The notes: a model not told the origin generated them from the letters alone. Counted from the stretch's first letter, positions 3,995 through 36,785 are shown. The stretch is DNA of 64,000 nt from Candidatus Micrarchaeota archaeon (GCA_043803815.1 JAZDJR010000035.1:14069-78068), one strand, 5' to 3'. Numbers and translations: made by a program.

Positions 3995-5422
3995 CTAAAC
4001 AGCGGATTTAATCCGGTTTTTGAGTTCAATGGCGCCGTTAAAAACGCTTTTTGGAATCAGGTTGGCTTTGTAAAGCGTTCCCACAAGTTTTCCGGCGGTT
4101 CCGTAATTGCGCAATAGCCGGTGAATATGATATTTTTTTCGGACTTCGTCCTGAATGCGCGGAATTTTTTTTTCTATGTAACGCCGCTGCTCGGGGGAAA
4201 TATTGGGTGTCCGGATAATGATGCGTTCGGCTTTGGTGTTGAATTCGTTGAGGTATTGCTCGGGCTGTATCAAAAAAAGGTCGCGTTCCTTGGCCTGAGC
4301 ATAACCTTCTGTCCCGCTATAGGGGACATAGTTGTTAAAGCTGGCCCAGCGGACGGGGTGGCGCAACGCAAAGTCGAAGGTATCTTCCACGTCCTGAAAT
4401 GTCTGGTCGGGAAAGCCCAGCATCATATTGAGATGCACATCGAATCCGGCATCGATGGCCGCCTTAATCGCGGCGTCAATCGTCTGCATGGTTTCTCCTT
4501 TTTTGATTAACTTAAGCATGCGTTCGTTGCCGACCTCGACGCCAAACGCAATGGACTCAAATCCGGCCGAGCGCATGCGCTTGAGCAGGGCAGGGGAAAC
4601 GCGGTCGCAGCGCACCCCTTGCGGAATGTTGAATACCATTCCTTTCAGGTTGTTTTGGGCAATCAAATCGCATATTTTGACGACCCGTTCCTGATTAAGC
4701 GTGAAATTATCGTCCAAAAACTCGATGCGGCGGTATCCTTTTTCGTACCAGTATTTGATTTCTTCAAGGACGCTTTCAGGGGAGCGAAAACGCCACCAGT
4801 TCCCGCTGACCACTGAAACCGCGCAAAAGGTGCAGTGTTCAGGGCATCCTCTGGAAGTCAAAACTACCATTGCGGGATACCAGTATTTTTTCAGCTCGAA
4901 TTTTTCATAGCGCGGCCAGGGAATGGATTCGATGTCGCGCCGAAACGGACGGTCCCCCGTAAAAATAATCTTGCCTTTTTCGCGGTAAAGCAGGCCTTTG
5001 ATTTCGGAAAATGGCTTTCCCCGACAGAGTTCCAATAGGGAATCTTCGCCTTCCCTTACTATTCCAAAATCGATGGCGGAGCAGTCTTCCAAAACTTTTT
5101 CTTTTTCTGTCGAAATATGGGCCGCTCCGACGGCAATCGGTATTTTGGGAAAGGCGGACTTTATTTTTTGGATAAGGGCATAACTGTCTTTATAGCGGTA
5201 GCTTTTTGTGGCAATGCCGAGCAAATCGGGCTTAAACGAATCGATTTTTTTAACCAGGTCGTCGAACGAATAGCCCAGATTCAAATCAAGCGTGTCGTAT
5301 TCAACTCCGTTTGCGGACAAATATTCGCCAAGATAGCCGAGCGCCAGATCCGGAACATCGCCCGGTTTGTACGTGCTATTGTAATACGCAACCGGAACCA
5401 GCAGCACCCGTTTAAAACGCAT
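3995..5422 (-). CDS. Cobalamin-binding radical SAM enzyme #1 (class B-like)
   Basis: N-terminal B12-binding Rossmann region (PDLALGYLG...GAAHIS...REGE), RGCPEHCTFC (CxxxCxxC), FLDDNF and FGVEVG. ATG at 5422 preferred over the ORF-track start at 5506. Confidence 0.9.
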   Translation of the reverse strand: MRFKRVLLVPVAYYNSTYKPGDVPDLALGYLGEYLSANGVEYDTLDLNLGYSFDDLVKKIDSFKPDLLGIATKSYRYKDSYALIQKIKSAFPKIPIAVGAAHISTEKEKVLEDCSAIDFGIVREGEDSLLELCRGKPFSEIKGLLYREKGKIIFTGDRPFRRDIESIPWPRYEKFELKKYWYPAMVVLTSRGCPEHCTFCAVSVVSGNWWRFRSPESVLEEIKYWYEKGYRRIEFLDDNFTLNQERVVKICDLIAQNNLKGMVFNIPQGVRCDRVSPALLKRMRSAGFESIAFGVEVGNERMLKLIKKGETMQTIDAAIKAAIDAGFDVHLNMMLGFPDQTFQDVEDTFDFALRHPVRWASFNNYVPYSGTEGYAQAKERDLFLIQPEQYLNEFNTKAERIIIRTPNISPEQRRYIEKKIPRIQDEVRKKYHIHRLLRNYGTAGKLVGTLYKANLIPKSVFNGAIELKNRIKSAV

Positions 5423-5627
5423 ACAAGAGCTATATTGGCATTTTTTTAAAAGCTTTCCTTTGAAAAAAGCCGCTTTGGAAAAATCCGTCAAAGCCGATTG
5501 CACCAAAAAAATATTCAGCCTATTCGCCGTGAATTAATCGGGTTCAACCGGCGATAAACATTAAAGGAGAAAGCCGCTTAACTGGAAACGAATAAGCAAA
5601 GGAAAAAGTAAGGTGCAGAAAAACCAT

Positions 5628-7013
5628 ATGAGCGCAATAAAATTGGCAATCGGAAAAAACCTGTCCTGGCTTTCGACCATGAAAACTCCATTTGGATATG
5701 CGGGGCCCGTCGTGCATTATTGGAGTAATTCGCTGGATTATATCGGTCCCGGAACGGACTGGCGATACGAAGGGCTTATTTCCGCTTTCTTGATTCTGCA
5801 TGAAAAAACCGGCGAGAAGCGGTTTTTGGATTCCGCAATAAAAGCGGGAGAATTCATCCTGGCCAATCGCCGCCGCAACGGCGGGTTTTTTTTCTCGAGT
5901 TTTGAAGCGAACCCTTCGTTTGAAGGCATCGGAACCCCGCACCAAAGCGCGGTGGTCCTCGCGTTGATCCGGCTTGCCGACAGGCTCAAATCGCTTGGGC
6001 TTGAATACAAAAAATTTTCGGCTGCCGCCCTGGAAAACCTGGAAAAAATACATATGGAAAAACTCTGGAGCAAAGAACAGCAAACATTTTTTCAGTATGG
6101 GAAAAGCAGGGCCGCCGGCCGGTCCAACGCGTTTGTTCCCAATAAAATTGCAACCGCGTGCCAGGCCTTTTTCGCCATGTATCGGCACACCAAACAGAAA
6201 AGATTTTTGGATATCGGATTGACCGCGCTTGCATATGTTCCCTCAATGCAGTGCACGGATAACTCGGAGTGGTTTGGCGGCATTTTTCAGTCCGACGACC
6301 AAAACAAGGTTTTTTCGTATTATACGGCGCGCTGCATTCCGGCACTCGCGGAGGGATACGAACTGAGCCAACAAGAAATGTTTCGCCGAACCATTGAAAA
6401 CGCGCTGGTATTTTTGGGTTCCATGCAAAATCCGGACGGCAGCCACAACGCGGGATTCATGCGATTCGGTTCCGTTTACCAAAAGACGACCCTGCCGCAT
6501 TTTGCGGCCGGAGCGGGGGATATCGGCCTTGCATTGGAAATCGGAAAGCCGTTTGGAAAGGCCGACAGCCGCGGCGTACTGGAATGGGTGATGCAAAACG
6601 CGGGAAAGAGCGGGGGATTTTTTTCAGCGCGCGGACTGGAATACAAAAACCGGCCGGATGCGCCCAAAAAAGCGGAATATTCCTGGCAGGACGCGTTGCC
6701 GGTCGTCGGATGGAACGATAAAGCGCTTCATTTTTTATCGTCGGTCTGCAGGAATGTTCAGGATATCCCAAAAATCGAGTTTGAAGAGAGTCAAAAGCAA
6801 TGCTCGAATGGAACGCTTATAGAAACGCGAAAGTTGCTTGCGGTGGAAGGCGCGGAAAAAAACTGGCGCTTTGAAAAACAAAAAAATTTTTCCAATGATC
6901 CCGCGGCATTAAAAAATCTTTTCTGCCGCATTGGCTTATTGGACACTCCGCCGACGGATTGGGTGGCCAGAGCCGGCTTGCGGATTTTAAGGGATTCAAA
7001 TGGACGTTTGTAA
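5628..7013 (+). CDS. Uncharacterised alpha/alpha-barrel protein (six-hairpin glycosidase / prenyltransferase-repeat-like)
   Basis: Repeated helical hairpins (HEKTGEKRFLDSA, YRHTKQKRFLD, FLGSMQNPDGS). ATG at 5628 follows AAGGTG. No signal peptide. Confidence 0.6.
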   Translation: MSAIKLAIGKNLSWLSTMKTPFGYAGPVVHYWSNSLDYIGPGTDWRYEGLISAFLILHEKTGEKRFLDSAIKAGEFILANRRRNGGFFFSSFEANPSFEGIGTPHQSAVVLALIRLADRLKSLGLEYKKFSAAALENLEKIHMEKLWSKEQQTFFQYGKSRAAGRSNAFVPNKIATACQAFFAMYRHTKQKRFLDIGLTALAYVPSMQCTDNSEWFGGIFQSDDQNKVFSYYTARCIPALAEGYELSQQEMFRRTIENALVFLGSMQNPDGSHNAGFMRFGSVYQKTTLPHFAAGAGDIGLALEIGKPFGKADSRGVLEWVMQNAGKSGGFFSARGLEYKNRPDAPKKAEYSWQDALPVVGWNDKALHFLSSVCRNVQDIPKIEFEESQKQCSNGTLIETRKLLAVEGAEKNWRFEKQKNFSNDPAALKNLFCRIGLLDTPPTDWVARAGLRILRDSNGRL

Positions 7014-11962: not shown

Positions 11963-13543
11963 TCAATTCCGGATGATAACCTTATGCAGCAGCCATTTGA
12001 CTTTCGCATTCTGGTTTAAGAATTTTTTAAAACTGACCAGAAAAAAGATTTCCAGGTCAAGGCTGAAAAAATTGTGCTTAAAGCGCTGTTTTAGCCATTC
12101 GCCGAGCAGTTTTCGCAAAAACGGGTAATGCGGCGCGTGTTTTTGCCGGGTATAGCTGAAATACAGACTGGCCATGTTTTGCAGGCGGATGACTCGGCCC
12201 GGATTTTTCAGCCAGGGCAGGCTTTTTTCCGATATAAACGTGCTGCTGTCAAGGCTGCTTTTGGCCCACTCAAAAAGCGATTGCGGCTCGTGAAAGCCGC
12301 TTTTTTTGCATTCCTGGTAAAGCGGGGTTCCCGGATACGGGCGAAACAGGCCCGGCCCGAGCAAAACGGATTCGGGATAGATTCCGGCAAGCTGGTCCAT
12401 CAATTGCAGGGTTTGGACCATGTCTTTTTCGGTTTCGCCGGGAATTCCGATCATGAAAAAACAAATCGGGATTATCTGGAATTTTTTGCAGCGATGAACG
12501 GCTTTGATGCTCATGTCGACCGTAATTCCCTTGTTCAGGATTTTTAATACGCGGTCGGAGCCGGATTCGATTCCGATGCGAAGCGATGTCAATCCGCTTT
12601 TTACGTATCGCTGCAGGTGCTGGTCGGTCAAAAAATTCGGCCGCACCAAATTGTCGGCGCGGATATCGGCTTCCCAGGTCAGCTTGAATTTTTTCGCTTT
12701 CAAATTGTCCACGATGGCGTCAACGCGCTCCAGGTTTCCGAAGAAAAAATCGTCCACGAACCAGATGTGGTCGATGTTGTGTTTGGAAACCAATTCGTTG
12801 ATGGCCGCGTTTACCTTTTCGGCGCTTAGCGGCCGCCATCGCTTGAACGCAAACATAGTGTTGGTGCAAAAGCTGCAGGCATACGGACAGCCGCGGCTTG
12901 AGGAAATATCGAGCACGATTGCTTTTCGCTCTTTTTTGGTTTTTTCGTCATACAACGGGCGCACCAGGTATTTTTCCAAATCCAAAAGCGAATAATCGGG
13001 CTTGGCCATGTCTTTTTCTTCGACCGGGGCGGATAGCCCGCCGTTGACAATGCCGGATTTTTTTTTGTACAATAGGCCCGGCGTTTTTTTCAGGCTTTTT
13101 TTCGACTGCAAAAATCCCAAAAGGCTGGCCATGGCCAGTTCGCCTTCTCCGGCAATGACAAAATCGATGTTCGGGTCTTTTAGGGTCTGTTCGGGAAACA
13201 AGGTGGGGTGCATTCCGCCCCAAACGATTTTCTTTTGTGGAAATCGTTTTCTCAGTTTTTTGGTCCACAAATAGGCATGTTTGAGGTCGGGGGTCATGAC
13301 GGAAAAGGCAATCAGCCGGGCATCCTTACATTCCCTGCACAGACGCAAAAAGCCTTCCTTTTTGGGGTATACGCGGCAATCGAACAATTTGACGTTATAC
13401 CCTTTTTCTTTTAAGTAACTGCCCAAAGCAAGTGTTCCGATTGGAACACACTTATAGTCGGCCAGTACTTCGAAATCGGCGCCGGGAAAATCCGGCATGA
13501 CGGAAGGCGTGATAAGGATGATGTCGGTTTTTGGTTTTTCCAT
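11963..13543 (-). CDS. Cobalamin-binding radical SAM enzyme #2
   Basis: PIGTLALGSYL, WGGMHPT, GEGE, SRGCPYACSFC, FVDDFF and GIESGS. Confidence 0.92.
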   Translation of the reverse strand: MEKPKTDIILITPSVMPDFPGADFEVLADYKCVPIGTLALGSYLKEKGYNVKLFDCRVYPKKEGFLRLCRECKDARLIAFSVMTPDLKHAYLWTKKLRKRFPQKKIVWGGMHPTLFPEQTLKDPNIDFVIAGEGELAMASLLGFLQSKKSLKKTPGLLYKKKSGIVNGGLSAPVEEKDMAKPDYSLLDLEKYLVRPLYDEKTKKERKAIVLDISSSRGCPYACSFCTNTMFAFKRWRPLSAEKVNAAINELVSKHNIDHIWFVDDFFFGNLERVDAIVDNLKAKKFKLTWEADIRADNLVRPNFLTDQHLQRYVKSGLTSLRIGIESGSDRVLKILNKGITVDMSIKAVHRCKKFQIIPICFFMIGIPGETEKDMVQTLQLMDQLAGIYPESVLLGPGLFRPYPGTPLYQECKKSGFHEPQSLFEWAKSSLDSSTFISEKSLPWLKNPGRVIRLQNMASLYFSYTRQKHAPHYPFLRKLLGEWLKQRFKHNFFSLDLEIFFLVSFKKFLNQNAKVKWLLHKVIIRN

Positions 13544-26376: not shown

Positions 26377-27831
26377 ATGAAGATTAATCGCGCGGTTTTC
26401 GTCAATCCGTATCCGTATTATGCCGCAGGCATCAACGAGGCAACCGCCTATCCGCCGCTCGGGCTTGCGTATTTTGCCTCTTTTTTGGCCAAAAAAGGCG
26501 TGAAGTGCCGGGTAATTGACGCCAATATCCTGGCCAAATCCAACGAATCCGTTTTGGCCGAAATCGAGGAATTCAAGCCGCAGCTGGTCGGGATTTCGAC
26601 GAATGTAGTCACCGCCCAGGCGGGAGAAGAGCTGGCCAAAATGATCAAGCAAAAAGACCCGAAAACAATCGTGGTGTTCGGCGGCCCTTATGCGACCAAC
26701 GTGGTTGAAAAATTGCTGAACCGCTCGGGAGCGGACTGCATTATCCGCGGCGAAGGCGAAATGACCCTGCTTGAGTTCGTCAAAAAAGGCGGGAACGTTT
26801 CCACCATCAAAGGGGTATCCTACCTGAAAAAAGGCAGATTAATCAGCAATCCGGATGCGGAAAAAATCCAAAACCTGGACGAACTGCCCTATCCCGCGTA
26901 CGATTTGTTGCCGCCGCTTTCCATGTATCATTCGCGCTCGCGCTACACGCCGATGGCGCCGATGATGATGACGCGCGGCTGCCCGTACGGCTGCATTTTT
27001 TGCTCGAGCGCGCACACCGCCAACAACATCATGGGCGCGGCGACCCGCAAGCGCTCGCCGAAAAATATCGTCGGAGAAATCCGCATGTTGTCCAAAAAAT
27101 ACGGCGTGCGCCAAATCGATTTTTTGGACGACAATTTTTCCCAGGATATGGAATACGCAAACAAGGTCATGGACGCGATAATAAAGGCCGACCTTGGCGT
27201 GGTGTACAATTTCCAAAACGGCCTTCGGGCCGACCGGCTGGACGAGCCCTTGATCATCAAAATGAAAAAAGCGGGGGTTGTTAAAGTCGGCATCGGGGTC
27301 GAATCCGGAGAGCAGGCCATAGTGGATGCCGCCAAAAAATCGCTGAACCTGGAAAAGGTGCGAACCGCAATCGGGTTATTGCGAAAGCACGGCATTATTG
27401 TCATCGGCTTTTTCATGCTGGGATTGCCCGGCGAGACCGCTAAAACAATGGAAAAAACAATCCGATTCGCGCTGGAAACCAATCCGCACATGGCCAATTT
27501 TTCCGTTGTGCTGCCTTTACCCGGAACCGAGTTGTATCGCATGGTCGAAAAAGCCGACGCGTTTGTAAAGGACGATACGACCGCGGGCGCGATGACGGGA
27601 TTTTACTCCCAGATGTTTTATTACAAAATGGGCGAAGTCACGCCTGAGTTGGTGTTTAAATACCAAAAAAAAGCGTACAACGAGTTTTATTTTCGGCCAT
27701 CCAAACTGCTGGACTTGATGACCACAATCCAGTCCTGGAACGAATTCAAGTGGACCTTAAACTCCGCCAAAAACATCGCGGCAGCGATTTTTAAAATGCC
27801 GTTTGGAAAAGCAGCATCCGCCGAGCACTGA
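26377..27831 (+). CDS. Cobalamin-binding radical SAM enzyme #3
   Basis: YPPLGLAYFA, FGGPYAT, RGEGE, TRGCPYGCIFC, FLDDNF and GVESG. ATG at 26377 lies about 25 nt after TATATTTAAA. The ORF-track extension to 25981 overlaps the opposite-strand GT2. Confidence 0.92.
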   Translation: MKINRAVFVNPYPYYAAGINEATAYPPLGLAYFASFLAKKGVKCRVIDANILAKSNESVLAEIEEFKPQLVGISTNVVTAQAGEELAKMIKQKDPKTIVVFGGPYATNVVEKLLNRSGADCIIRGEGEMTLLEFVKKGGNVSTIKGVSYLKKGRLISNPDAEKIQNLDELPYPAYDLLPPLSMYHSRSRYTPMAPMMMTRGCPYGCIFCSSAHTANNIMGAATRKRSPKNIVGEIRMLSKKYGVRQIDFLDDNFSQDMEYANKVMDAIIKADLGVVYNFQNGLRADRLDEPLIIKMKKAGVVKVGIGVESGEQAIVDAAKKSLNLEKVRTAIGLLRKHGIIVIGFFMLGLPGETAKTMEKTIRFALETNPHMANFSVVLPLPGTELYRMVEKADAFVKDDTTAGAMTGFYSQMFYYKMGEVTPELVFKYQKKAYNEFYFRPSKLLDLMTTIQSWNEFKWTLNSAKNIAAAIFKMPFGKAASAEH

Positions 27832-27896: not shown

Positions 27897-29213
27897 CTAA
27901 TTTTTACCGAAATCCAGCGGCTTGTCCTGAACGTATTTTAGGCCAAGTGCAAGCGCGGTTTCGGCTTTGGACAGTTCGGTTCCCAAATACAGGGCGTGGC
28001 TGGTCGTTCCGACGATGTTTTCGCGGATAATCTGGTCGCGCAAGGAAAGGGCGGTTTTTCCCGAATACATGAACAAGAGTTCGTTTCCAGGAGACAAGTG
28101 CTCAACTACGATTTCACCCTGCGAAAGATAAATCACAAAAGAGCCCCGAAAGTCGCGCACGAGTTGGGGTGTCGGGACCCATTGCCCAAAATTTTTTTCC
28201 ACAATACTTTGGGTTTTTTCAAGTTCCGCTAACGGAACAAAAAAATCAAGGACCGTAACGGCAATGGCGACGGTTTTAAAAGAATACTCCGAAGCGGAAA
28301 AAACGGATTGAAGCGCGGCAAGCAGTTGGGCAACAGCTTGCGCATCTGCGGAGGAAAGAACCGCCTGGATTAAAAGGCCGTCATCCAGCGATTGCACTCG
28401 GGTTTCTATTTTTTTTTCCAAAAAGGAAAGGTTAACCAAACTTGGAGTCGAATTTTCCGAAAGCAAAGCGTTTGAAAGTTCTTTTTTCCACTGCTTTGCA
28501 AGAGCATCACAGTCCTTGGCCGAAAAGGAAAAAAAATCGGGAACATTGAACGGTTTTTTGGACGGAAGATAAATACAAAAAACGGGATTCAGCAAAAAGC
28601 GTTTTTTTTCATTCGAGTGGCCGAATTTGATAAGGGAATCAAGGCCCAATATCCACGGTTCCATAAAATCCGAGCCGCGAAAAACGAATCCCGCGGGTTC
28701 GCCGAAAAATTTTTTGGCAAACGCGGATTTTTTTTTGAATACCTGTTTTTCGCGCCGCGATTCGGGTTCGGTAAAACGCAGTTCGTTAAACGGCTGCTGG
28801 ATAAAGTCCCACTGATAAACTAAAACGCTTTGGCGCAATTGCTGCAACGCGTTTTCGGAAATGTCGGCTTCTATATAACCTTCCACCGGACTGGTTACCC
28901 GCCAAACATCAATTCCGGTGTCCTTAGTTTTTCCCCTGACAAAGCCGTGTTCAAAAAAATCCCGCAATACAATGCCTGATTTTCCCATGTCCGAACCCGT
29001 AATCACCAGATGCTTGATTTTCGGATTGGATAGCAAGGAACGAACCAAGGTATCCAGTCCCCGCTCGGCATTGTACAGGTTTCCGATAATGCCGAAATCT
29101 TTTTTGGAAAGGCGCGACGCCACCATTTCGACCGGCGTCCACAAAGTTACGATGGCAACCAAAGGGTTGTCCCCGAAAACCAGAGTATTGGTTTTGGATT
29201 CTGCAGGGTTCAT
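27897..29213 (-). CDS. MtrA-like domain + degenerate thymidylate-synthase-like domain + DUF4346 fusion
   Basis: The N-terminus (AIVTLWT...IIGNLYNAERGLDTLVRSLLSNPKIKHLVITGSD) resembles MtrA. The C-terminus (DFRGSFVI...YSGKTA...SHALYLGTELSKAETALALGLKYVQD) resembles DUF4346. The middle aligns loosely to ThyA without its catalytic residues. Confidence 0.7.
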   Translation of the reverse strand: MNPAESKTNTLVFGDNPLVAIVTLWTPVEMVASRLSKKDFGIIGNLYNAERGLDTLVRSLLSNPKIKHLVITGSDMGKSGIVLRDFFEHGFVRGKTKDTGIDVWRVTSPVEGYIEADISENALQQLRQSVLVYQWDFIQQPFNELRFTEPESRREKQVFKKKSAFAKKFFGEPAGFVFRGSDFMEPWILGLDSLIKFGHSNEKKRFLLNPVFCIYLPSKKPFNVPDFFSFSAKDCDALAKQWKKELSNALLSENSTPSLVNLSFLEKKIETRVQSLDDGLLIQAVLSSADAQAVAQLLAALQSVFSASEYSFKTVAIAVTVLDFFVPLAELEKTQSIVEKNFGQWVPTPQLVRDFRGSFVIYLSQGEIVVEHLSPGNELLFMYSGKTALSLRDQIIRENIVGTTSHALYLGTELSKAETALALGLKYVQDKPLDFGKN

Positions 29214-29278
29214 GAAAAAACCCTTGGGGCAATATTTTTTAAACCGCTTGAAATTTCGGCAGGGGGTAATTTTTTGTT

Positions 29279-29782
29279 TTATAACTGAATGGCAAATCGT
29301 TTCCCCAACACGGGGGTAAGATGGTAAAAACTGATTTCCGAATTTTTTTCAAGCGTTATTTTTTCGATTGATTTTTCAGGAATTTTCCCGTTTATTTCAA
29401 ACAAAAAATATCCTTTTTTCCCGTCGATTTTTTCAACCAGATAGCCCGACGGCGTTTTTTTCAGGCCGATGCCCGGAACGCGCTTAAATGCGTCAAGCAA
29501 GGTTTCACCTTCATGGGCTTTAATCACATGCGAGTCGCCAATTGCATGGAAAATTTTTTTAATGGTCTGCAGGTACGCGGTATTAAGCCTAAGCACATGC
29601 ATATTGCCTATTTTTTTGCGTTCGACAATGCGGTTTTTTTCGAGGATTCGGACGTGTTTTAGGGCGACGGGAACCGCGATTCCCACTTCCTTCGCAATTC
29701 CGTTGATGCTGTATTCATTGTCAAAAAGCAGGCGCACGATTTTTCTGCGATTCTCGTTTCCCAAAATATTGAACAGGTCCAA
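29279..29782 (-). CDS. ArsR-type winged-helix transcription factor fused to a DUF4430 (transcobalamin beta-domain-like) domain
   Basis: wHTH: DLFNILGNENRRKIVRLL...SINGIAKEVGIAVPVALKHVRILEKNRIV. The C-terminus (GETLLDAFK...GYLVEKIDG...FLFEINGK) aligns with the DUF4430 lipoprotein at 33012. TTG start at 29782 lies 5 nt after GGTG. Confidence 0.8.
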   Translation of the reverse strand: MDLFNILGNENRRKIVRLLFDNEYSINGIAKEVGIAVPVALKHVRILEKNRIVERKKIGNMHVLRLNTAYLQTIKKIFHAIGDSHVIKAHEGETLLDAFKRVPGIGLKKTPSGYLVEKIDGKKGYFLFEINGKIPEKSIEKITLEKNSEISFYHLTPVLGKRFAIQL

Positions 29783-29801
29783 AAAAACACCGTTATCCTT
29801 C

Positions 29802-29819
29802 GGATAATAATTATTATCC
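29802..29819. promoter_or_regulatory. Perfect 18-bp palindrome GGATAATAATTATTATCC, candidate operator
   Basis: Exactly equals its own reverse complement. It lies between the divergent regulator and transporter operon, with an extra TTATCC half-site at 29793-29798. Confidence 0.75.
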
Positions 29820-29820
29820 A

Positions 29821-29838
29821 AAAAAAGGTTTTTAAAAG
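29821..29838 (+). promoter_or_regulatory. BRE/TATA promoter (AAAAAAGG-TTTTTAAAAG) of the DUF4430 operon; the TATA is also readable on the minus strand
   Basis: A purine tract followed by TTTTTAAAA about 45 nt upstream of the 29882 start, immediately downstream of the palindrome. Confidence 0.55.
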
Positions 29839-29881
29839 CGTATTGGAACCCCAATGAATACGATTTTAGGGGTTTTGAAAT

Positions 29882-31867
29882 TTGGAAAAAAAAATCGCGT
29901 TAACTATTAGCTTTTTACTGCTGGTCACATTGGCCAACGCGTATCCTTTGCCGGCATCGGATTCACACATTACAAGCGCGCTTTCGTATCTTAAAAGCGT
30001 GCAGACCGCCGACGGGTGCATCGGGGGTTTTGCAACGAGTGCATGGGTAATTGATTCGGTTGCCGCGGCGGGACAAAACCCTTCTTCCGTGTCCTGGCAA
30101 AATTCCGGCAAGTCACTCGTGGACTGCATCAAAAAAGATGCCGCTTGGTTTAATGATTCCGGCCGAAGCGCAACGGATTTTGAACGCCAGATTTTGGCCG
30201 TTGTCGCGACCGATGAGGACCCCGCAAATTTTAACGGTTTGGATTATGTTACCAAACTCAAGTCTTTTTTTGACGGAACCCAAATGGGCCAAAGCGCTTA
30301 CCTAAACGATGACATGTGGGGCATCATGGCCTTGCGTGCCGCGGGAGAACCGGCTTCTTCAGCGCAAATTCAAGGCATGGCAACGTTTTTGGAATCCAAC
30401 CAAGGAGCGGACGGTTCGTTCAGTTGGGGCATCGGGCAGGCCGGCGACCCGGACGATACCGCGGACGCCATAATGGCTTTAATTTCCGCAGGAAAAATGC
30501 CGGACAGCGCATCGGTTCAAAACGGCTTGGCTTTTTTAAAAACCCAACAGGACTCCAATATCGCGGGAATACAGTCATTTGGTCTTGTCAATCCCGATTC
30601 GACTTCTCACGCGGTGGATTCCATTGTATCGGCGGGACAAGACCCGACCGATGCAGCTTGGCAGGAAAACGACACGAATCCAGTCGAATATTTATTGTCT
30701 TGGCAGCAGCCGAACGGCGGTTTTAGCAATCCGTACGCAAACCCCCCCGGTTCATCAAGTGAATGGACCACGGCCGGCGCGCTGAACGCGTTGCTTGGAA
30801 AGCCTTATCCTGTCAAAATCCGGACTATTGCGCAGAATTTGCAGATGCCGGTTCGCATTGAAGGCGCCGATGCCGTCATTGTCGACACAACGGTTGTATT
30901 GCCGCAGTCTTTTGAATTCAGCGCTACGAGCGGAACGCATTACTCCCTGCACGAGCCGAGCTTGCTGATGGGTTTGCTTGAAACCGCAAGCGAAAACGGT
31001 TTTGCGGTCGGCGTAAGCGACCAGTGGTATCCCGCGCTCGGTTTTTACGTCAACGAAATCGCGGACCAGCCTGCCGAAGGGCTGAACGGATGGAATGTAC
31101 GCGTGGACAATCGTTCAATCGGTTCTTTTTCTTCCGACGCATTCATTTGGCAGTCCAGTTCGCCGCCCGCTTTGCCGCATCACGACGTTACGTGGTATTT
31201 TGGAAGCTGGGACGCCAATGCGCTTCGGTTAACGAGCAATTCAACAAGCGTTCAAACCGACGAAAACGTGCAGGTCAAGGTGGAATATTTTTCCGAACAG
31301 GATAACGCGTGGTATCCGGTGCAAGGCGCAACCGTCAAAGGTGCGGCCCAAGACCAGCTGACGGACGCGCAGGGAAACGCGACGATTCGGTTTGCTTCGG
31401 GTGGAACCCAAAACGTTTTTGCCGAAAAACCGGGCCAAAAGTACTTTCGCAGCAAAAAGCTGGCTTTTGCGGTGCAAGGACCGGAACAATCCTCAACGCA
31501 AGTCCGATTGATTGGAACCCTTGTTCCGGCCGTGTCGTTTTCGGTTTCGCCAAGCCAACTCAATTTCGGCTCGTTTGGACCGGGATATTTGGTTCATGCC
31601 AATAGCCTGGAAGTGAAAAATACGGGTTCGTGGAACCTGCAAATTAAGGCGAGTATCAATGATACGAACGGCACATTGTATTCTTCGGGTTTATTGTTAA
31701 ACGACACCCCGTGGAACCAGTTTTCGCTGGCATTAAACGCCCAGCCGCCGGGTTTTTTGAACACTGCCGTTGTGACTTCCGGATTGCAGGTGCCACCGGA
31801 TTTTTCGCAAACCGGAACCCAAAACGGAATCGTTACTTTTTGGGCGACCGCTACTCAGGTTCCGTAA
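29882..31867 (+). CDS. Secreted transcobalamin-architecture protein: prenyltransferase-repeat alpha-barrel + DUF4430 + Ig-like domains
   Basis: Signal peptide (MEKKIALTISFLLLVTLANA), then QxxDG-type repeats (YLKSVQTADG, FLESNQGADGSF, YLLSWQQPNGGF). A DUF4430-like segment follows (GFYVNEIAD...GWNVRVD...DVTWYF), then PVQGATV...TDAQGNA and SVSPSQLNFG beta-sandwiches. Confidence 0.75.
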   Translation: MEKKIALTISFLLLVTLANAYPLPASDSHITSALSYLKSVQTADGCIGGFATSAWVIDSVAAAGQNPSSVSWQNSGKSLVDCIKKDAAWFNDSGRSATDFERQILAVVATDEDPANFNGLDYVTKLKSFFDGTQMGQSAYLNDDMWGIMALRAAGEPASSAQIQGMATFLESNQGADGSFSWGIGQAGDPDDTADAIMALISAGKMPDSASVQNGLAFLKTQQDSNIAGIQSFGLVNPDSTSHAVDSIVSAGQDPTDAAWQENDTNPVEYLLSWQQPNGGFSNPYANPPGSSSEWTTAGALNALLGKPYPVKIRTIAQNLQMPVRIEGADAVIVDTTVVLPQSFEFSATSGTHYSLHEPSLLMGLLETASENGFAVGVSDQWYPALGFYVNEIADQPAEGLNGWNVRVDNRSIGSFSSDAFIWQSSSPPALPHHDVTWYFGSWDANALRLTSNSTSVQTDENVQVKVEYFSEQDNAWYPVQGATVKGAAQDQLTDAQGNATIRFASGGTQNVFAEKPGQKYFRSKKLAFAVQGPEQSSTQVRLIGTLVPAVSFSVSPSQLNFGSFGPGYLVHANSLEVKNTGSWNLQIKASINDTNGTLYSSGLLLNDTPWNQFSLALNAQPPGFLNTAVVTSGLQVPPDFSQTGTQNGIVTFWATATQVP

Positions 31868-31880
31868 CGGAGAAAAAATA

Positions 31881-32465
31881 ATGCATGCCACAATTTTTTT
31901 TTTAATCGGCATCTTGTTGCTATTGGGCTGTTCATCATTTGCGGTTGGGCTTGGCGTAAATCCCGCGTATCTGGAATTCAAGATTTATTCCGAAAAAGAT
32001 TTGGAACAATCGCTTTTTGTGATTAACACGGAAAATGCGTCGCTTGATTTTAACGTGTATGCGGTGGATTACTGGTTTTTAATCGAGCCCAATCATTTTT
32101 CGCTGCCTGCGGGAAAAAAACAGGAAGTTTTGTTGCGGATGAAATTTTCCCCAAGTCCGCAGGAAACACAAACGGAAGTGCGGGTCGTCGCAAGCGAACC
32201 CGGCCAAAACCAGGTTAAAACCGGAATTAAGATGCCGGTCAAAATCCTGCAATTACAAGACGCGACGCTTACTGATCCAAACGATTCCAATTCTTCAGAA
32301 CAAAACCCGCAAAAAGCCTTGACTGGTTTTTTTAGCCTGAACGGGTCATCCTCGCTTTTAGGTTTATTGGTTATCGGGCTTTGCGCTTTGGTTGTTGGAC
32401 TGGCCAAAGCAAAGGGATTAAAAGGAAAAATAGGCATAAAATATGCGAAATACGATGAAAAATAA
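31881..32465 (+). CDS. Secreted Ig/PapD-like protein with C-terminal membrane anchor
   Basis: Signal peptide, then LGVNPAYLEF...VINT...IEPNHFSLPAGKKQEV, a low-complexity linker, and LTGFF followed by a TM helix and basic tail. Confidence 0.6.
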   Translation: MHATIFFLIGILLLLGCSSFAVGLGVNPAYLEFKIYSEKDLEQSLFVINTENASLDFNVYAVDYWFLIEPNHFSLPAGKKQEVLLRMKFSPSPQETQTEVRVVASEPGQNQVKTGIKMPVKILQLQDATLTDPNDSNSSEQNPQKALTGFFSLNGSSSLLGLLVIGLCALVVGLAKAKGLKGKIGIKYAKYDEK

Positions 32466-33015
32466 ATCCAAAAATGCGCTGACTTTTTTCGGCGGACTGG
32501 TCCTGACGAGTGCGTATCGCCTGCTTCGAATCTTTCCCAACAACGACCCCATCATGGGTTTTGCACTTCCAATCGCCCGCAACCAGAAATGGTGGCAGGC
32601 GTTTTTGTTTCCCGCCTTGGCCATGGCCTGTTTTGACGTATTGACCGCCAAAGTGGGGCCATGGACGGTTATTACCGCGGTTCTTTACGGCACAATCGGG
32701 GTAATGTTTCATTTTTATTTCAGGAAAAAAACCAAGGTCGGCCTTGGCACGTACGCCAAATTAAGCGTCGTGGGCGTTTTGGCATTCGATTTTTTTACCG
32801 GCCCCATTATGACCAGTTACCTGTTTAAAATCCCGTTTTCCGTTGCCTTAATCGGCCAGATTCCGTTTACTTTGCTTCACCTGGCCAGCGCGGTAACCAT
32901 TACCGTTTTATTGGCGCCCGTTCTTGACCCTTCAGTTAGAAGCCTGCCGGCCGAATTAAAACACAGGATTAAAAGCCGGTTTTTTTCTGGCCAATCATCC
33001 GGGGTCATACGATGA
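32443..33015 (+). CDS. ECF-type S-component, CbrT-like (putative cobalamin)
   Basis: About 190 aa with about 6 hydrophobic segments. RLLRIFPNNDPIM resembles the PNxxP motif of CbrT-type S-components, and GPWT and IPFTLLH also fit. It is flanked by DUF4430 genes. The start may be 32455. Confidence 0.7.
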   Translation: MRNTMKNKSKNALTFFGGLVLTSAYRLLRIFPNNDPIMGFALPIARNQKWWQAFLFPALAMACFDVLTAKVGPWTVITAVLYGTIGVMFHFYFRKKTKVGLGTYAKLSVVGVLAFDFFTGPIMTSYLFKIPFSVALIGQIPFTLLHLASAVTITVLLAPVLDPSVRSLPAELKHRIKSRFFSGQSSGVIR

Positions 33016-33422
33016 AATTCCAGAATGCGATTTTTTGGGGATTTTTGGTTTTTTTTCTTTTGGCCGGCTGCATCCAGCAGCAGCAATCCCAAAACGCACC
33101 GCCCGGCTCCCAAACGCAAACGGTTGCGCTTTCGCTGAAATACACGGATGAAAACGGAACCGTGCTGCTTGAAAAAAATATTTCCGTTGCCAAGGGAACC
33201 AATGCGTTTGATGCCATCAAAGAAAGCGTTCCGCTTGATTTTGAAACGACCTCCTTTGGACCATTCATCAAAAGCATCGGCGGAGTCTCTCCTTCTTCCG
33301 ATTATTATTTGGCGCTTTACGTTAATGGCCAGTATGCGGACCGCGGAATCGCGGGATATACGCTTTCGGAAGATACTAGTATAGAATGGAAAACGGAAAA
33401 AATCCAAAGCGCGCCGGTTTGA
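33012..33422 (+). CDS. DUF4430 lipoprotein (putative cobalamin-binding)
   Basis: Lipobox LLAGC, then GTNAFDAIK...FGPFIKSIGG...YYLALYVNGQYADRGIAGYTL...IEW. ATGA overlap with the S-component gene. Confidence 0.82.
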   Translation: MKFQNAIFWGFLVFFLLAGCIQQQQSQNAPPGSQTQTVALSLKYTDENGTVLLEKNISVAKGTNAFDAIKESVPLDFETTSFGPFIKSIGGVSPSSDYYLALYVNGQYADRGIAGYTLSEDTSIEWKTEKIQSAPV

Positions 33423-33464: not shown

Positions 33465-35078
33465 ATGGCTGCCCAAAATCAAAAAATAAAAATAGCGGTG
33501 GTACTGATTGCGATACTGGCCGCCCTGATCCTTAATATCCCCGTTCTGGCGGGATATGCCCAGTCGAATCCGCAGCATGTTTTTTTAGGATTCGATTTTT
33601 TTGACGATTTTCATAATTATTCCATGTATATTTACGAAGCCGCTCATTCCAACCACCTGTTTCTTGAAAACAGGAACAACACGCAGTTTGACGAACCGGG
33701 AAGATACTTTTGGCCGTATTTTTTATTGCTTGGAAAAATCGTCCAGCTGACCGGACTTTCGATTCCCGTCGTTTTTATGGCCAGCCGCGCGATTGTTTTG
33801 CTCCTTTTACTCGGCGTGGCATGGAAACTGGTGCAGGAACTGTTTGAGAATAAGGAACAGCAGGTACTGGCTTATGCCTTGATTGCGTTTGGAACGGGTT
33901 TTGGCTGGCTTTCACGGCTTTTGGAACCCGTAATTCCTATCTTGCAAAGGATAAAAGGCGCGGACATGGATTACACCCTTGGATACAGCACATTTTCGGG
34001 CGCCATGTATCCGCTTTCAACCTTGGCATTTGCGCTTTTCCTTGCTCTATTTTATTTTATTCTCCGATATCACGCAACCCGAAAAAACAAGAATCTGGCC
34101 TACGCGCTGGTGGTGTCGGTTCCGATTCCGTTCATTCACCCGCCGACCATTCCGCTGGTATGGGGAATACTGGCTACAACAACCGTAATATTTTTGGTGT
34201 TTTCAAAAAACAAGTTCAGGGAAAACATGTCGCACAGCGTTAAAATCTGGGGCGTGCTAATCGTTGCCCCGATTCTGTTCGGGTTATACCTGCTTTGGGC
34301 GCTTGGTGACCCGAGTTATGCGGGAAGCGTTGCGACGTATGCGGCTTGGGGCCGATGGTTTAAGCCGATTGTCTGGCCGATTGGGTTCGGCCTGCTCGGG
34401 CTTTTTGCACTCATCGGCCTTGCCAAAGAAAAATTCAAAAACAATTTTACGAGGATTTTGGTCATTTGCTGGCTGGTCGTAAGCCTGCTATTGGCGCTCA
34501 CGCCGACGGGAAGAAAATTCCTGATCGGCGCCCACATCCCGATGGCTTTGCTTGCGTCGGCAGGAATACTTTGGGCATTCGGCAAATTTTTGGGCTGGAA
34601 GCGCAGGACAACGAGGCAAAAAATAATCATTGCGGGAATTCTCGTCGTTTTGATGTCGCTGACGTATGTCATCAACACGCAGGACAAAATCAAATCGATA
34701 CAGGAAAACCCGTACGCTTCTTTGACCCAAAGCGAGATTGATGCAATGACGTTTTTAGAACAGCAGCCCAAAGCAAATGTTCTTTCCAGCTATCGCATCG
34801 GAAGCGATGTTACGTGGATGACCCCGCACCGGGCGTTTTTGGGGCACTGGGGAGAAACGCTTGGCATAAAGGAAAAAACGCTGGAAACCAAGCAATTCTT
34901 TTCCACCGGACTTACCGCGCAGGAAAAAATCGGCTTTCTGCAAAAAGAAAAAATAACGTATATATTTTACGGGCAGGATGAAAAACAATACGGAAACATC
35001 GACCCCGCCGTCGGCCTGGAAACGATTTACCAAAACGCGGAAGTGACTATTTACAAATTCAACCCGCAGCCGGCGTAA
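33465..35078 (+). CDS. GT-C-like polytopic membrane protein with C-terminal soluble domain
   Basis: TM1 followed by FLGFDFFDDFHNY, then FGTGFGWL, IHP, and a C-terminal GHWGET...ITYIFYG...YQNAEVTIYK domain. Confidence 0.65.
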   Translation: MAAQNQKIKIAVVLIAILAALILNIPVLAGYAQSNPQHVFLGFDFFDDFHNYSMYIYEAAHSNHLFLENRNNTQFDEPGRYFWPYFLLLGKIVQLTGLSIPVVFMASRAIVLLLLLGVAWKLVQELFENKEQQVLAYALIAFGTGFGWLSRLLEPVIPILQRIKGADMDYTLGYSTFSGAMYPLSTLAFALFLALFYFILRYHATRKNKNLAYALVVSVPIPFIHPPTIPLVWGILATTTVIFLVFSKNKFRENMSHSVKIWGVLIVAPILFGLYLLWALGDPSYAGSVATYAAWGRWFKPIVWPIGFGLLGLFALIGLAKEKFKNNFTRILVICWLVVSLLLALTPTGRKFLIGAHIPMALLASAGILWAFGKFLGWKRRTTRQKIIIAGILVVLMSLTYVINTQDKIKSIQENPYASLTQSEIDAMTFLEQQPKANVLSSYRIGSDVTWMTPHRAFLGHWGETLGIKEKTLETKQFFSTGLTAQEKIGFLQKEKITYIFYGQDEKQYGNIDPAVGLETIYQNAEVTIYKFNPQPA

Positions 35079-35219
35079 ATAAAACCAGCCGACTGCAGCG
35101 GAATGCCAATAACTAAGTTATTAAAAAGAATCAATGAAAAAATATCAAAAATATCCGTTGAACGGAAAATGACCGCACAAAAACCGCGGCAATCGGCATA
35201 CAAAAGGGGATTATTTCAA

Positions 35220-36785
35220 ATGAATTTCGGAAAAATAGACAAAAGACTCCTGATTCCGATTATTTTTGCCATCGCTCTTGCGCTGCTTCAGCTTACTCCT
35301 TCCATTGCGGGTTATTTTGTAAACACCGATAAGGTGTATTTGGGGTTTGAATCCATTCAGGATTCCTATGTTTATGCCTCGTTTATTGAAGATGCCAAGC
35401 ACAATTTTTTCCTCCTGAATAAAAACCACGCTTTGGAGCCCCAAGTCAGGACCTATTTTGTCCCCATTTTTAACGTGGCCGCATTTATGAACACGTGGCT
35501 TGACTTACCCCTGGTATTTTATGTTATACGCTTTTTTCAGACTTTATTTTTCTTGGGCTGTCTCTGGTATTTTTTGAGTTATTTTTACAAAAATTACCGC
35601 GAAAAACTGTTTTCCTATCTTTTCATACCGATTGCGGGCGGCTTTGGATGGCTGGTCACCATTGTCGGAGTGGTGATCCCGTTAATCGGACGGATCCGAA
35701 GCTATGACATTACCTATTGGATGGGATTCAGCCTCATCGGACATATGTACCTGTTTCATCGGTACTATGCACTCGGACTCGTGCTTGTGGGATTCATCCA
35801 GCTTTTGAAATATTACGAAAAAGGCGAAACCAAGCGCCTAATTGCCGCGGCTTTGCTTGGGCTCGTGTCGTTTTTTATCCATCCGGTTACGACCATTTTT
35901 TTTACCGTCACCGTAATCGGAATGCAGGTGCTGATTGCGCTCAAGAATGGAAAAATAGGAAAAAAACAGATACTGACCATTTTGGTTTTCGGAATCGTGC
36001 TTTTTCCGATTATTCCTTTTTCGGCTTGGGTCGCGCAAAACCCGGTCGCGGCCGACCACCAAAAAGTTTATTTTTTCCAGAAAGCCTCGCAGCCGTTCGT
36101 GTTTTATTTTATCGCCTACGGCATGCTGCTCATCATTACGCTCATCAGCCTTACCAAGGCCAGCTGGCTGGATGACAAGGATTCTCCCGCAATATTCAAG
36201 GAAGTCCCGAAAAACAGCCTGTTTTTGTCCTGGATTATAACATCGCTTATCCTGTCACAGATAGGATTTGGAGTGGAGTACACCATTTTCCTTTTCGTAG
36301 CGCTCGCATTTGTTGCCGCCAAATGGATTTACAATATCCGCGAAAAAGTGCCCAAACTGCTGTGGATTGCAATCATTTTATCCTGCATCCTGTCCGTTCC
36401 TTTTGTCATTGCGGAAAGAACCAACCGCGCGGTAACCAGCGAGTACGCTTATATTACACACGGCGAAGACGAGGCCATGAAATTTTTGGACAACCAGCCC
36501 AAAGGCGTTTTTTTGGGGGACAAGATTATTTCTTCCATCGTTGTTTGGAGGACCAAACATACGGTTTTCAGCGACATCGAATACCTGACTTATGATTACC
36601 GCGACAAAATGGGAGAAGTCAAACAATTCTTTGACGGAAATCTGGACATTCCAAAAGAATACAAGGGAAAAATCGATTACCTGTGGATCGGCCCCGCCGA
36701 GGATTTAAACAAGACCTACACGTCGGAAAAAACCGAACTCATTTTTTCCAATAGCGACGTAAAAATTTACAAGATACTGAAATGA
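35220..36785 (+). CDS. GT-C-like polytopic membrane protein (tandem paralog of 33465..35078)
   Basis: YLGFESIQDSYVY, AGGFGWL, FIHP, EAMKFLDNQPK and FSNSDVKIYK match the upstream paralog. ATG at 35220 follows AAAAGGGGA. Confidence 0.65.
   Translation: MNFGKIDKRLLIPIIFAIALALLQLTPSIAGYFVNTDKVYLGFESIQDSYVYASFIEDAKHNFFLLNKNHALEPQVRTYFVPIFNVAAFMNTWLDLPLVFYVIRFFQTLFFLGCLWYFLSYFYKNYREKLFSYLFIPIAGGFGWLVTIVGVVIPLIGRIRSYDITYWMGFSLIGHMYLFHRYYALGLVLVGFIQLLKYYEKGETKRLIAAALLGLVSFFIHPVTTIFFTVTVIGMQVLIALKNGKIGKKQILTILVFGIVLFPIIPFSAWVAQNPVAADHQKVYFFQKASQPFVFYFIAYGMLLIITLISLTKASWLDDKDSPAIFKEVPKNSLFLSWIITSLILSQIGFGVEYTIFLFVALAFVAAKWIYNIREKVPKLLWIAIILSCILSVPFVIAERTNRAVTSEYAYITHGEDEAMKFLDNQPKGVFLGDKIISSIVVWRTKHTVFSDIEYLTYDYRDKMGEVKQFFDGNLDIPKEYKGKIDYLWIGPAEDLNKTYTSEKTELIFSNSDVKIYKILK

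Follow-up and report, generated by a model that had tools for sequence, protein, structure and literature searches.

We analyzed a window of 64,000 nucleotides (the whole stretch of DNA under study) from a Candidatus Micrarchaeota archaeon (GCA_043803815.1, JAZDJR010000035.1:14069-78068). Positions 29279-33422 of this window hold a cluster of five genes, which we describe here as a candidate corrinoid-uptake module: one gene on the minus strand, R, encodes a putative regulator, and four genes on the plus strand, P2 to P5, encode predicted secreted and membrane proteins. An earlier note on this DNA had placed five genes here, with the regulator diverging from four coupled genes over about 100 AT-rich bp, and our analysis reproduced this layout. 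R and P2 diverge from an intergenic region of 99 bp (29783-29881) with 30.3% GC, P2 and P3 are separated by 13 nt, and the two following junctions are overlaps of 23 and 4 nt. The features of the cluster are as follows.

29279..29782, minus strand: R, ~167 aa, ArsR-type winged helix-turn-helix (wHTH; aa ~1-80) followed by a C-terminal SLBB/DUF4430 domain (aa ~83-152), assigned from Pfam and an alignment of homologues
29792..29819, no strand: predicted operator of 28 bp with three alternating half-sites, assigned from motif conservation upstream of R genes
29829..29838, no strand: symmetric TATA-like box in the middle of the 99-bp divergent region, assigned from the sequence and the presence of TBP in the genome
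29882..31867, plus strand: P2, 661 aa, secreted, with a signal peptide and an alpha/alpha toroid (aa ~25-315), assigned from Pfam and profile matches
30845-31210, plus strand: diverged SLBB/DUF4430-like domain of P2 (aa 322-443), assigned by family-level comparison
31211-31864, plus strand: two C-terminal beta-sandwich-like regions of P2 (CarboxypepD_reg 0.019, a weak match)
31881..32465, plus strand: P3, 194 aa, Ig-like putative membrane anchor; LLGC signal at the N-terminus, hydrophobic helix and basic tail at the C-terminus
32443..33015 (alternative start 32455), plus strand: P4, 190 aa, polytopic membrane protein, DUF6580/CbrT-like, with an S-component-like fold
33012..33422, plus strand: P5, 136 aa, lipoprotein-like (LLAGC, lipobox-like), with a DUF4430/SLBB domain at aa 62-129

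The longest open reading frame (ORF) for R spans 29279-29854 on the minus strand. The likely start is the TTG codon at 29782, because homologues in a 16-sequence alignment are ~168 aa long and the profile match in the genome covers 29279-29782. The N-terminal part of R matches Pfam HTH_5 with 7e-8 and 32.7 bits (cut-off 22), and a profile of R compared with the PDB retrieved ArsR-family regulators, the best being 2P4W (6.3e-10). The C-terminal domain matches Pfam DUF4430 (PF14478) with 3e-5 and 24.8 bits, just over the cut-off of 23.8, and residues 83-152 reach 4e-23 against a DUF4430 hidden Markov model (HMM) trained on the related loci described below. With both domains above their Pfam cut-offs, the description of R as an ArsR-type regulator carrying a DUF4430 domain was borne out.

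Relatives of R are found in several archaeal lineages. A clustered protein database contained 21 of them, a search among 1.84 billion sequences gave 18 representatives at E ≤ 1e-30, and a scan of one genome per species returned 86, from which 80 loci were kept. Record titles assign these loci to Iainarchaeota, Altiarchaeota, Thermoplasmatota, Bathyarchaeia and others; R relatives also occur in cultured methanogens (Methanolapillus strains), and PF14478 also matches the control genome of Methanosarcina acetivorans. Within the phylum of the window itself the distribution is patchy, with R present in 32 of 215 genomes. Synteny was counted within 3.5 kb of R on the ORFs of the 80 loci, using HMMs iterated from the window proteins. 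A partner gene was found in 47 of the 80 loci (a toroid protein in 29, a further DUF4430 protein in 43 and a DUF6580 protein in 23), and in 42 it was divergently adjacent to R (<400 bp). The absence of partners is overcounted, because the ORF calls were crude, the HMMs were self-trained and some loci are truncated by contig ends. Co-conservation in other genomes, on which the earlier note had staked its reading, was therefore found. Two loci with an archaeal-type R and partners come from assemblies titled Chloroflexi (L010, contig of 2.9 kb) and Falkowbacteria (L018, 14.3 kb); these titles probably reflect binning errors rather than an occurrence in bacteria.

In 13 of the 33 loci that had no partner gene, hemA, nrdD, cbiM, cbiQ(O), a tetrapyrrole methylase or a nikR-like gene lies no more than two genes from R; in two of them the nikR-like gene is accompanied by a NicO-type transporter. 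Such gene classes are reportedly under the control of B12 riboswitches in bacteria.

The predicted operator consists of TTATC-N5-GATAA (29793-29807) and the perfect 18-bp palindrome GGATAATAATTATTATCC (29802-29819), and is located 10 bp before the start of R and 10 bp after the TATA-like box, TTTTTAAAAG. Directly upstream of the R start, most related loci carry the alternating half-sites GATAAC-N4-GTTATC-N6-GRTAAC, and in many of them a TTTAAA-like box lies at a similar distance upstream of the operator. The pattern TTAYC-N4-7-GRTAA was found exactly in 26 of the 80 R-upstream regions, compared with 8 of 1500 random windows drawn from the same loci as background, and within one mismatch in 58 of the 80 regions compared with 90 of the 1500; the spacing is nearly always 6. 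We consider TTTTTAAAAG a candidate promoter element common to R and P2: it is the only such box within the 99 bp, so the divergent operon probably shares it. The position of the operator between this box and the R start suggests that R would repress its own gene. In the host genome, the exact pattern together with five spacing variants gave 20 matches, among which the site at R is the only double one.

In two Hydrothermarchaeota loci (L030 and L042), R stands last in a nikR-like operon whose first gene has a second exact site upstream of it; the middle gene of this operon in L030 is NicO-like. Three Methanolapillus loci (L041, L057 and L063, ~6540-7010) encode R homologues with a lysine/glutamate-rich N-terminal extension that diverge from nrdD, and in their intergenic regions a AATAACAACTCTTATT-type palindrome replaces the common motif.

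P2 is the largest protein of the cluster. Its toroid is of the squalene-cyclase/prenyltransferase type, matching SQHop_cyclase_C in Pfam with 8.9e-8 and, as a family profile, squalene-hopene cyclase with 4.1e-22; the single sequence gave only weak cyclase matches in the PDB. Residues 189-194 (30446-30463) read D-P-D-D-T-A, similar to the acid motif DxDDTA that squalene-hopene cyclases carry. Across the family, D189 and D191 hardly vary, unlike the position that follows; this Asp-rich segment may be a repeated inner-helix motif of the toroid. Pfam Cobalamin_bind (PF01122) did not match P2 of the window, and reached 0.043 and 0.34 in the orthologues L059 and L033.

The assignment of the middle domain of P2 (aa 322-443) was less direct. 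It had no match to Pfam DUF4430 at E ≤ 1 and none to the locus-trained HMMs, and an alignment of the three closest sequences compared with DUF4430 gave an hhalign probability of only 0.6%. A 13-sequence P2 alignment compared with an alignment of stand-alone DUF4430 proteins reached 89.8% (E 1.8e-6), pairing P2 321-441 with P5 35-129, and the P2 orthologue in L033, which is 37% identical, matches Pfam DUF4430 with 1.7e-10 in the aligned place. The earlier note's DUF4430 domain in a secreted alpha-barrel protein is thus not matched directly in P2 of the window, and is instead indicated at the level of the family. In Iainarchaeota-type relatives (L006-L010, L012, L013, L015 and L018) the toroid protein is circularly rearranged with respect to P2, with DUF4430 first and the toroid second.

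For P3, which the earlier note took as an Ig-fold anchor, the hydrophobic N and C ends are present, and the match to the Ig-like Cep192_D6 is weak (26.3 bits, below the cut-off of 35). P3 occurs in only 4 of the 80 related loci, each time after a P2-type gene, and in L033 (1047-2516) a P3-like Ig domain is fused to DUF4430.

Like the middle domain of P2, P4 depends on family-level evidence. The single sequence scores 23.1 bits against DUF6580 (PF20221), below the cut-off of 27, and has no match in the PDB. Eight P4-like proteins from the related loci were scanned: six match DUF6580, five of them at 70-92 bits and that of L015 at 24.2, below the cut-off, and the remaining two gave no match and a match to ECF_trnsprt, respectively. 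A profile of 14 family members gave one PDB match below E 1, namely 6FNP_A (2.8e-4, 8-184 aligned with 8-166), which we take to be the ECF-CbrT structure. The Atlas look-alikes of P4 belong to ECF-ribofla_trS, DUF6580 or ECF_trnsprt clusters (TM 0.64-0.85). A CbrT-like S-component, as claimed before, is therefore recovered with the family profile and not with the P4 of the window taken singly.

Finally, P5 closes the operon. It matches Pfam DUF4430 with 4.4e-12 and 46.7 bits (47.9 bits in the PF14478 search of the genome), which together with its LLAGC signal agrees with the previous description of a DUF4430 lipoprotein; the single sequence retrieved nothing meaningful from the PDB. P5 homologues adjoin DUF6580 genes in 23 of the 80 loci, and in two loci DUF6580 is fused to a C-terminal DUF4430 domain (L055, 2013-3026, with Pfam values of 2.8e-19 and 6.9e-16; L067, 641-1684).

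To relate these domains to known structures, we compared a profile of 51 archaeal DUF4430 domains, all taken from the related loci, with the PDB. It matched the beta domain of transcobalamin-2 (8.8e-7), haptocorrin (TC-1; 0.012) and intrinsic factor (0.014), the other matches being to protein G only, at E>0.2. The homology of DUF4430 to the beta domain of transcobalamin and intrinsic factor, given as established in the earlier note, is supported by these values.

The host genome (1.08 Mb in 36 contigs, 85.6% complete and 1.3% contaminated) encodes TBP. The TBP family matched only the 4 archaeal genomes among 14 controls, which identifies the host as an archaeon; the small genome and the nearest related loci, which are titled Iainarchaeum, fit a DPANN lineage, indirectly. 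The genome contains four genes with a B12-binding domain (PF02310), three on the contig of the window and one on contig C29. The three in the window were confirmed as B12-binding radical-SAM genes, and one of them lies two genes from R. CobS, CbiB and a FecCD/BtuC-type permease had no match in the genome at its 85.6% completeness. Four B12-binding genes in a genome with no CobS or CbiB detected make a need for corrinoids plausible.

No riboswitch was detected at the locus. The window had no Rfam match at the gathering score, the region 29100-30300 had no match to a cobalamin family at E ≤ 1 (the sole match was a chance-level miRNA family, E 0.98), and the leader folds no better than its shuffles (z = -0.76). 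RF00174 was also absent from the host genome. Of the 14 control genomes, 7 had a match; all 7 were bacterial, and the 4 archaeal controls had none. The description of the cluster as riboswitch-free is thus correct, but it is the normal state for an archaeon and not a remarkable one.

Taken together, the cluster is, with moderate confidence and from what its sequence offers, a module for the scavenging and import of corrinoids (cobamides or cobinamide) with a local, ligand-sensing one-component repressor. We infer each step of the following scheme from the domain homologies, the synteny and gene fusions, the operator motif, and the presence of B12 enzymes alongside no detected corrinoid-assembly genes. 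P2, in which a beta-grasp SLBB domain comes after an alpha/alpha toroid as in transcobalamin, would capture the ligand at the cell surface, where its Ig-like tail and the P3 anchor may hold it at the envelope. P5, as a membrane-tethered SLBB protein, would deliver the ligand to P4, and this CbrT-like protein of the S-component type would move it across the membrane, possibly with no need of an ECF ATPase module, a mode proposed for BtuM. R, in the cytoplasm, would sense the same ligand through its SLBB domain. As a dimer or a dimer of dimers, it would bind the palindromic operator between the shared TATA-like box and its own start codon, and thereby set how far both its own gene and the divergent P2-P3-P4-P5 operon are transcribed. 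R would most likely repress when corrinoid is plentiful, which is also the logic of bacterial B12 riboswitches.

A broader generalisation is possible and should be taken as tentative. R could be the archaeal protein counterpart of the B12 riboswitch, a corrinoid-sensing ArsR-wHTH/SLBB repressor acting on GATAAC-N4-GTTATC / TTAYC-N6-GRTAA in at least five archaeal lineages. It might control uptake in auxotrophs, and cobalt uptake, corrin synthesis and the B12-independent ribonucleotide reductase in producers. DUF6580 with a tethered SLBB protein might then form a new class of solitary, ECF-independent transporter fed by extracellular binding proteins, including a transcobalamin-like one.

Several observations weigh against the corrinoid module as proposed. 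The identity of the ligand is itself deduced from homology, and within the window the middle domain of P2 and P4 reach significance only through family profiles. R might either repress or activate the divergent operon: the predicted site overlaps R's own promoter but sits upstream of the TATA-like box relative to P2. The R regulon looks local. Of the other exact-pattern sites in the host genome, the six inspected are all intragenic; in five other genomes the counts of the exact pattern were about those of a reversed-pattern control; and of 21 further sites in one of these five, G001, the 20 looked at comprise 18 intragenic ones and two at gene ends. With no credible further intergenic sites in these exact-pattern scans, no regulon-level link to the B12 enzymes emerged. 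The genome, within its 85.6%, contained neither a PduO-type adenosyltransferase nor a class I or II ribonucleotide reductase. EcfT/CbiQ (PF02361) had no match there either, and tblastn with the EcfT-like ORFs of relatives was negative.

Only 4 of the 24 cluster-bearing genomes had a match to PF02361. Three DPANN relatives with DUF6580 (L117/G007, L118/G006 and L119/G009), on the other hand, have a small ECF-like S-A-T operon elsewhere in the genome, so that such a module could lie in the missing ~14% of the host genome. The S-A-T operon is compact: next to a gene resembling S-components it has one for a fused double ABC ATPase of ~387 aa and a short one, of ~199 aa, that is EcfT-like. In two of the three relatives it is followed by an adenylosuccinate-synthase-like gene; tblastn found no counterpart of it in the host genome. 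The synteny also has a contrary side: 20 of the 33 partnerless loci have no metal or tetrapyrrole neighbour, and the commonest neighbour in these 33 loci is a T2SSE ATPase (11 of the 121 proteins tallied with Pfam, 2 of 123 having been left out as ORFs running off the end of the locus). Where nikR-like and NicO-type genes are neighbours, they could equally point to nickel.

The alternative that survives best keeps the same architecture and logic and replaces the ligand by another tetrapyrrole or cofactor, such as heme, a tetrapyrrole containing nickel or cobalt, or a precursor; we regard it as unlikely. It gains from the Hydrothermarchaeota loci, in which R is part of nikR-like operons (two with a NicO-type gene), and from the strong divergence of the SLBB domain of P2 in the window. 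A caution that archaeal SLBB versions may bind another metabolite was voiced by Burroughs et al. (2007, PMC1796856), and the homologous lsa1836-1840 operon of Lactobacillus sakei has been proposed to take up heme (10.1101/864751). As far as the accessible text of the latter goes, this proposal draws on docking and physiology, not on binding measured with the proteins in question. The other evidence favors a corrinoid: the solved relatives of the SLBB profile at E<0.02 are all B12 carriers, and the genome has four B12-binding genes with no corrinoid-assembly genes detected. For the P4 family, 6FNP_A is the one structure matched below E 1, and we take it to be the B12 S-component CbrT.

Alternatively, R could be an ordinary ArsR/SmtB sensor of cobalt or nickel, its C-terminal domain serving oligomerisation and its neighbours the uptake of metals or metal chelates. 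We consider this improbable, even with the matches of R to HTH_5 and to the NCBIfam model HTH_metalloreg and its position next to cbiM, cbiQ/cbiO, nikR-like and NicO-type genes in other archaea. The score against the metal-sensing model (HTH_metalloreg, NF033788) is 46.5 bits, below the cut-off of 55, and the R translation contains no cysteine. Furthermore, the residues beyond the HTH that the family keeps invariant (G126, G137, E142 and G145) all lie in the SLBB domain, which is homologous to the ligand-binding beta domains of transcobalamins. The partner genes code for SLBB proteins and an S-component of the vitamin type, and not for metal permeases.

Slightly less probable still is that the plus-strand genes form an envelope module unrelated to cofactors (e.g. 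a terpenoid or glycan surface enzyme with its anchors) of the surrounding glycan island, with R as a generic local regulator: the cyclase-type repeats and D-P-D-D-T-A segment of P2 and the many glycosyltransferases, enzymes of sugar modification and GT-C-like membrane proteins in the window speak for it, whereas the association of P2, P5, P4 and R recurs without glycan genes in 47 of 80 loci from several phyla, DUF4430 is fused to DUF6580, the SLBB and CbrT homologies suggest that small molecules are captured, and the Asp-rich segment aligns in the PDB alignment with the inner-helix repeat of the toroid and not with the cyclase active site.

For the candidate corrinoid module itself, the boundaries of the conserved unit and its surroundings could be described from the window, whose GC content is 44-52% in 2-kb bins.

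3995-5506, minus strand: B12-binding radical-SAM gene, confirmed as radical-SAM
11963-13543, minus strand: B12-binding radical-SAM gene, confirmed as radical-SAM
26398..27831, plus strand: B12-binding radical-SAM enzyme (B12-binding 2.8e-22, Radical_SAM 3.6e-22)
27897..29213, minus strand: MtrA-like/PterinBD-DUF4346 protein, 438 aa, possible extra member of the cluster, 65 bp downstream of R on the same strand
33465-35078 and 35103-36785, plus strand: two large polytopic membrane proteins after P5, without Pfam match

The three B12-binding radical-SAM genes sit inside an island for glycan and cell-surface biosynthesis, which also contains a DegT aminotransferase, an epimerase, glycosyltransferases and a C-methyltransferase. 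The two membrane proteins that follow P5 (33465-36785) had no match in the 80 related loci, which places the end of the conserved unit at 33422. The first of them resembles GT-C glycosyltransferases (PMT_2/STT3-like clusters, TM up to 0.89, Atlas).

On the other side of the cluster, the protein at 27897-29213 has a C-terminal PterinBD-DUF4346 domain (9.5e-18) and matches MtrA with 0.0069 and the MtrA subfamily model NF002126 with 5.9e-7 (aa 12-100). MtrA is a corrinoid protein. The gene may be co-transcribed with R, and this neighbourhood is not conserved, a fragment being found in 1 of the 80 loci. A putative corrinoid/pterin protein of this kind is unusual in a non-methanogen. Elsewhere in the 1.08 Mb, ARAGORN found only 17 tRNAs, for one of which it called an anticodon of four bases (tgaa); archaeal tRNAs that are split or contain introns may have escaped it.

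In the literature searched, we found no description of how archaea sense B12 and control its uptake or synthesis, and, among the matches listed, recognised no paper on an archaeal B12 regulator; the search returned nothing after 2007 on HTH-SLBB proteins, no treatment of the prokaryotic function of DUF4430, no mention of DUF6580, and CbrS together with CbrT only in the eLife paper cited below. The R family offers a small, concrete candidate for such a regulator, a protein of 168 aa with a defined predicted DNA site of 28 bp. If the reading is true, the cluster would illustrate by what route DPANN archaea with reduced genomes, dependent as they are on other cells for cofactors, acquire the corrinoids that their B12 radical-SAM enzymes use. 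ATP-independent vitamin importers are few, and DUF6580 would join them if it needs no ECF module. This significance is tempered by the fact that the architectures and the sensor idea were predicted in 2007, and that the components are known from sequence prediction.

Indeed, the earlier note's suggestion that this configuration had not been described does not hold. Burroughs et al. (2007, Biol Direct 2:4, PMC1796856) reported that transcobalamin-like SLBB domains of prokaryotes are joined to alpha/alpha toroids, with either of the two coming first, and noted for bacteria the permutation seen above in the Iainarchaeota-type relatives. They further reported archaeal Ig fusions, secreted SLBB proteins that stand alone, and operons with CbiO/CbiQ. 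For ArsR-wHTH+SLBB proteins of Methanosarcina they proposed a role as one-component sensors that respond to B12, to its precursors or to some unknown ligand. The domain set of the cluster (SLBB-toroid, Ig, stand-alone SLBB and ArsR-SLBB) is the same. Their study was computational, and its accessible text contains no operator, divergent unit, DUF6580/CbrT partner or DPANN example; conversely, the CbiO/CbiQ operons are absent here. What appears to be new is thus the conserved divergent unit of regulator and operon across archaeal phyla, its operator, the DUF6580 (CbrT-like) partner with its fusions, and the mostly ECF-less background. The system that the earlier note had proposed for capture, import and sensing is supported by the domain families of its parts, the family-level link of P4 to CbrT, the co-conservation and the plausible need for corrinoids, but "complete" is not supported, with neither an ECF T-component nor a PduO-type adenosyltransferase found in the 85.6% complete genome; that reading was plausible but overstated.

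The import step can be compared with two bacterial transporters. ECF-CbrT of Lactobacillus delbrueckii is encoded in an nrdJ-cbrS-cbrT-pduO cluster (Santos et al. 2018, eLife, PMC5997447). The P4 family is homologous to 6FNP_A over nearly its full length, and the P4 gene adjoins a further small gene as cbrT adjoins cbrS. CbrT, by contrast, uses EcfAA'T, whereas no EcfT was found in the host genome and P4 of the window lies below the DUF6580 cut-off. BtuM (Rempel et al. 2018, Nat Commun, PMC6072759) is an S-component-like protein of six helices, proposed to import cobalamin on its own without an ECF module, which makes it a precedent for P4. According to that paper, its sequences are unrelated to other proteins and it binds B12 via a cysteine; it has no SLBB partner, whereas P4 belongs to DUF6580 and its family is paired or fused with SLBB domains.

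The lsa1836-1840 operon of L. sakei (preprint 10.1101/864751) encodes an S-component, EcfA, EcfT and secreted DUF4430 and toroid proteins. It shares with the cluster an S-component and secreted proteins resembling the transcobalamin beta domain and the toroid, which are separate there, and differs in the presence of EcfA/EcfT, the lack of an SLBB regulator and the proposal of heme as substrate. On the side of regulation, control by RF00174, which in bacteria acts on B12 uptake, cobalt transport and B12-independent isozymes, resembles the proposed circuit in its cofactor feedback and in the kinds of genes concerned, with uptake proteins in the cluster and cbiMNQO, tetrapyrrole methylase, hemA and nrdD as neighbours of R in other archaea, but the sensor here would be a protein on DNA and not an RNA. 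Finally, the animal carriers transcobalamin, intrinsic factor and haptocorrin share with P2 the order of an alpha/alpha toroid followed by a beta-grasp domain, with a homologous beta domain. They differ from P2 in their toroid, which in P2 is made of squalene-cyclase/prenyltransferase repeats instead of Cobalamin_bind, in the two additional C-terminal beta-sandwich regions of P2, and in the membrane-bound relay to which P2 is proposed to belong.

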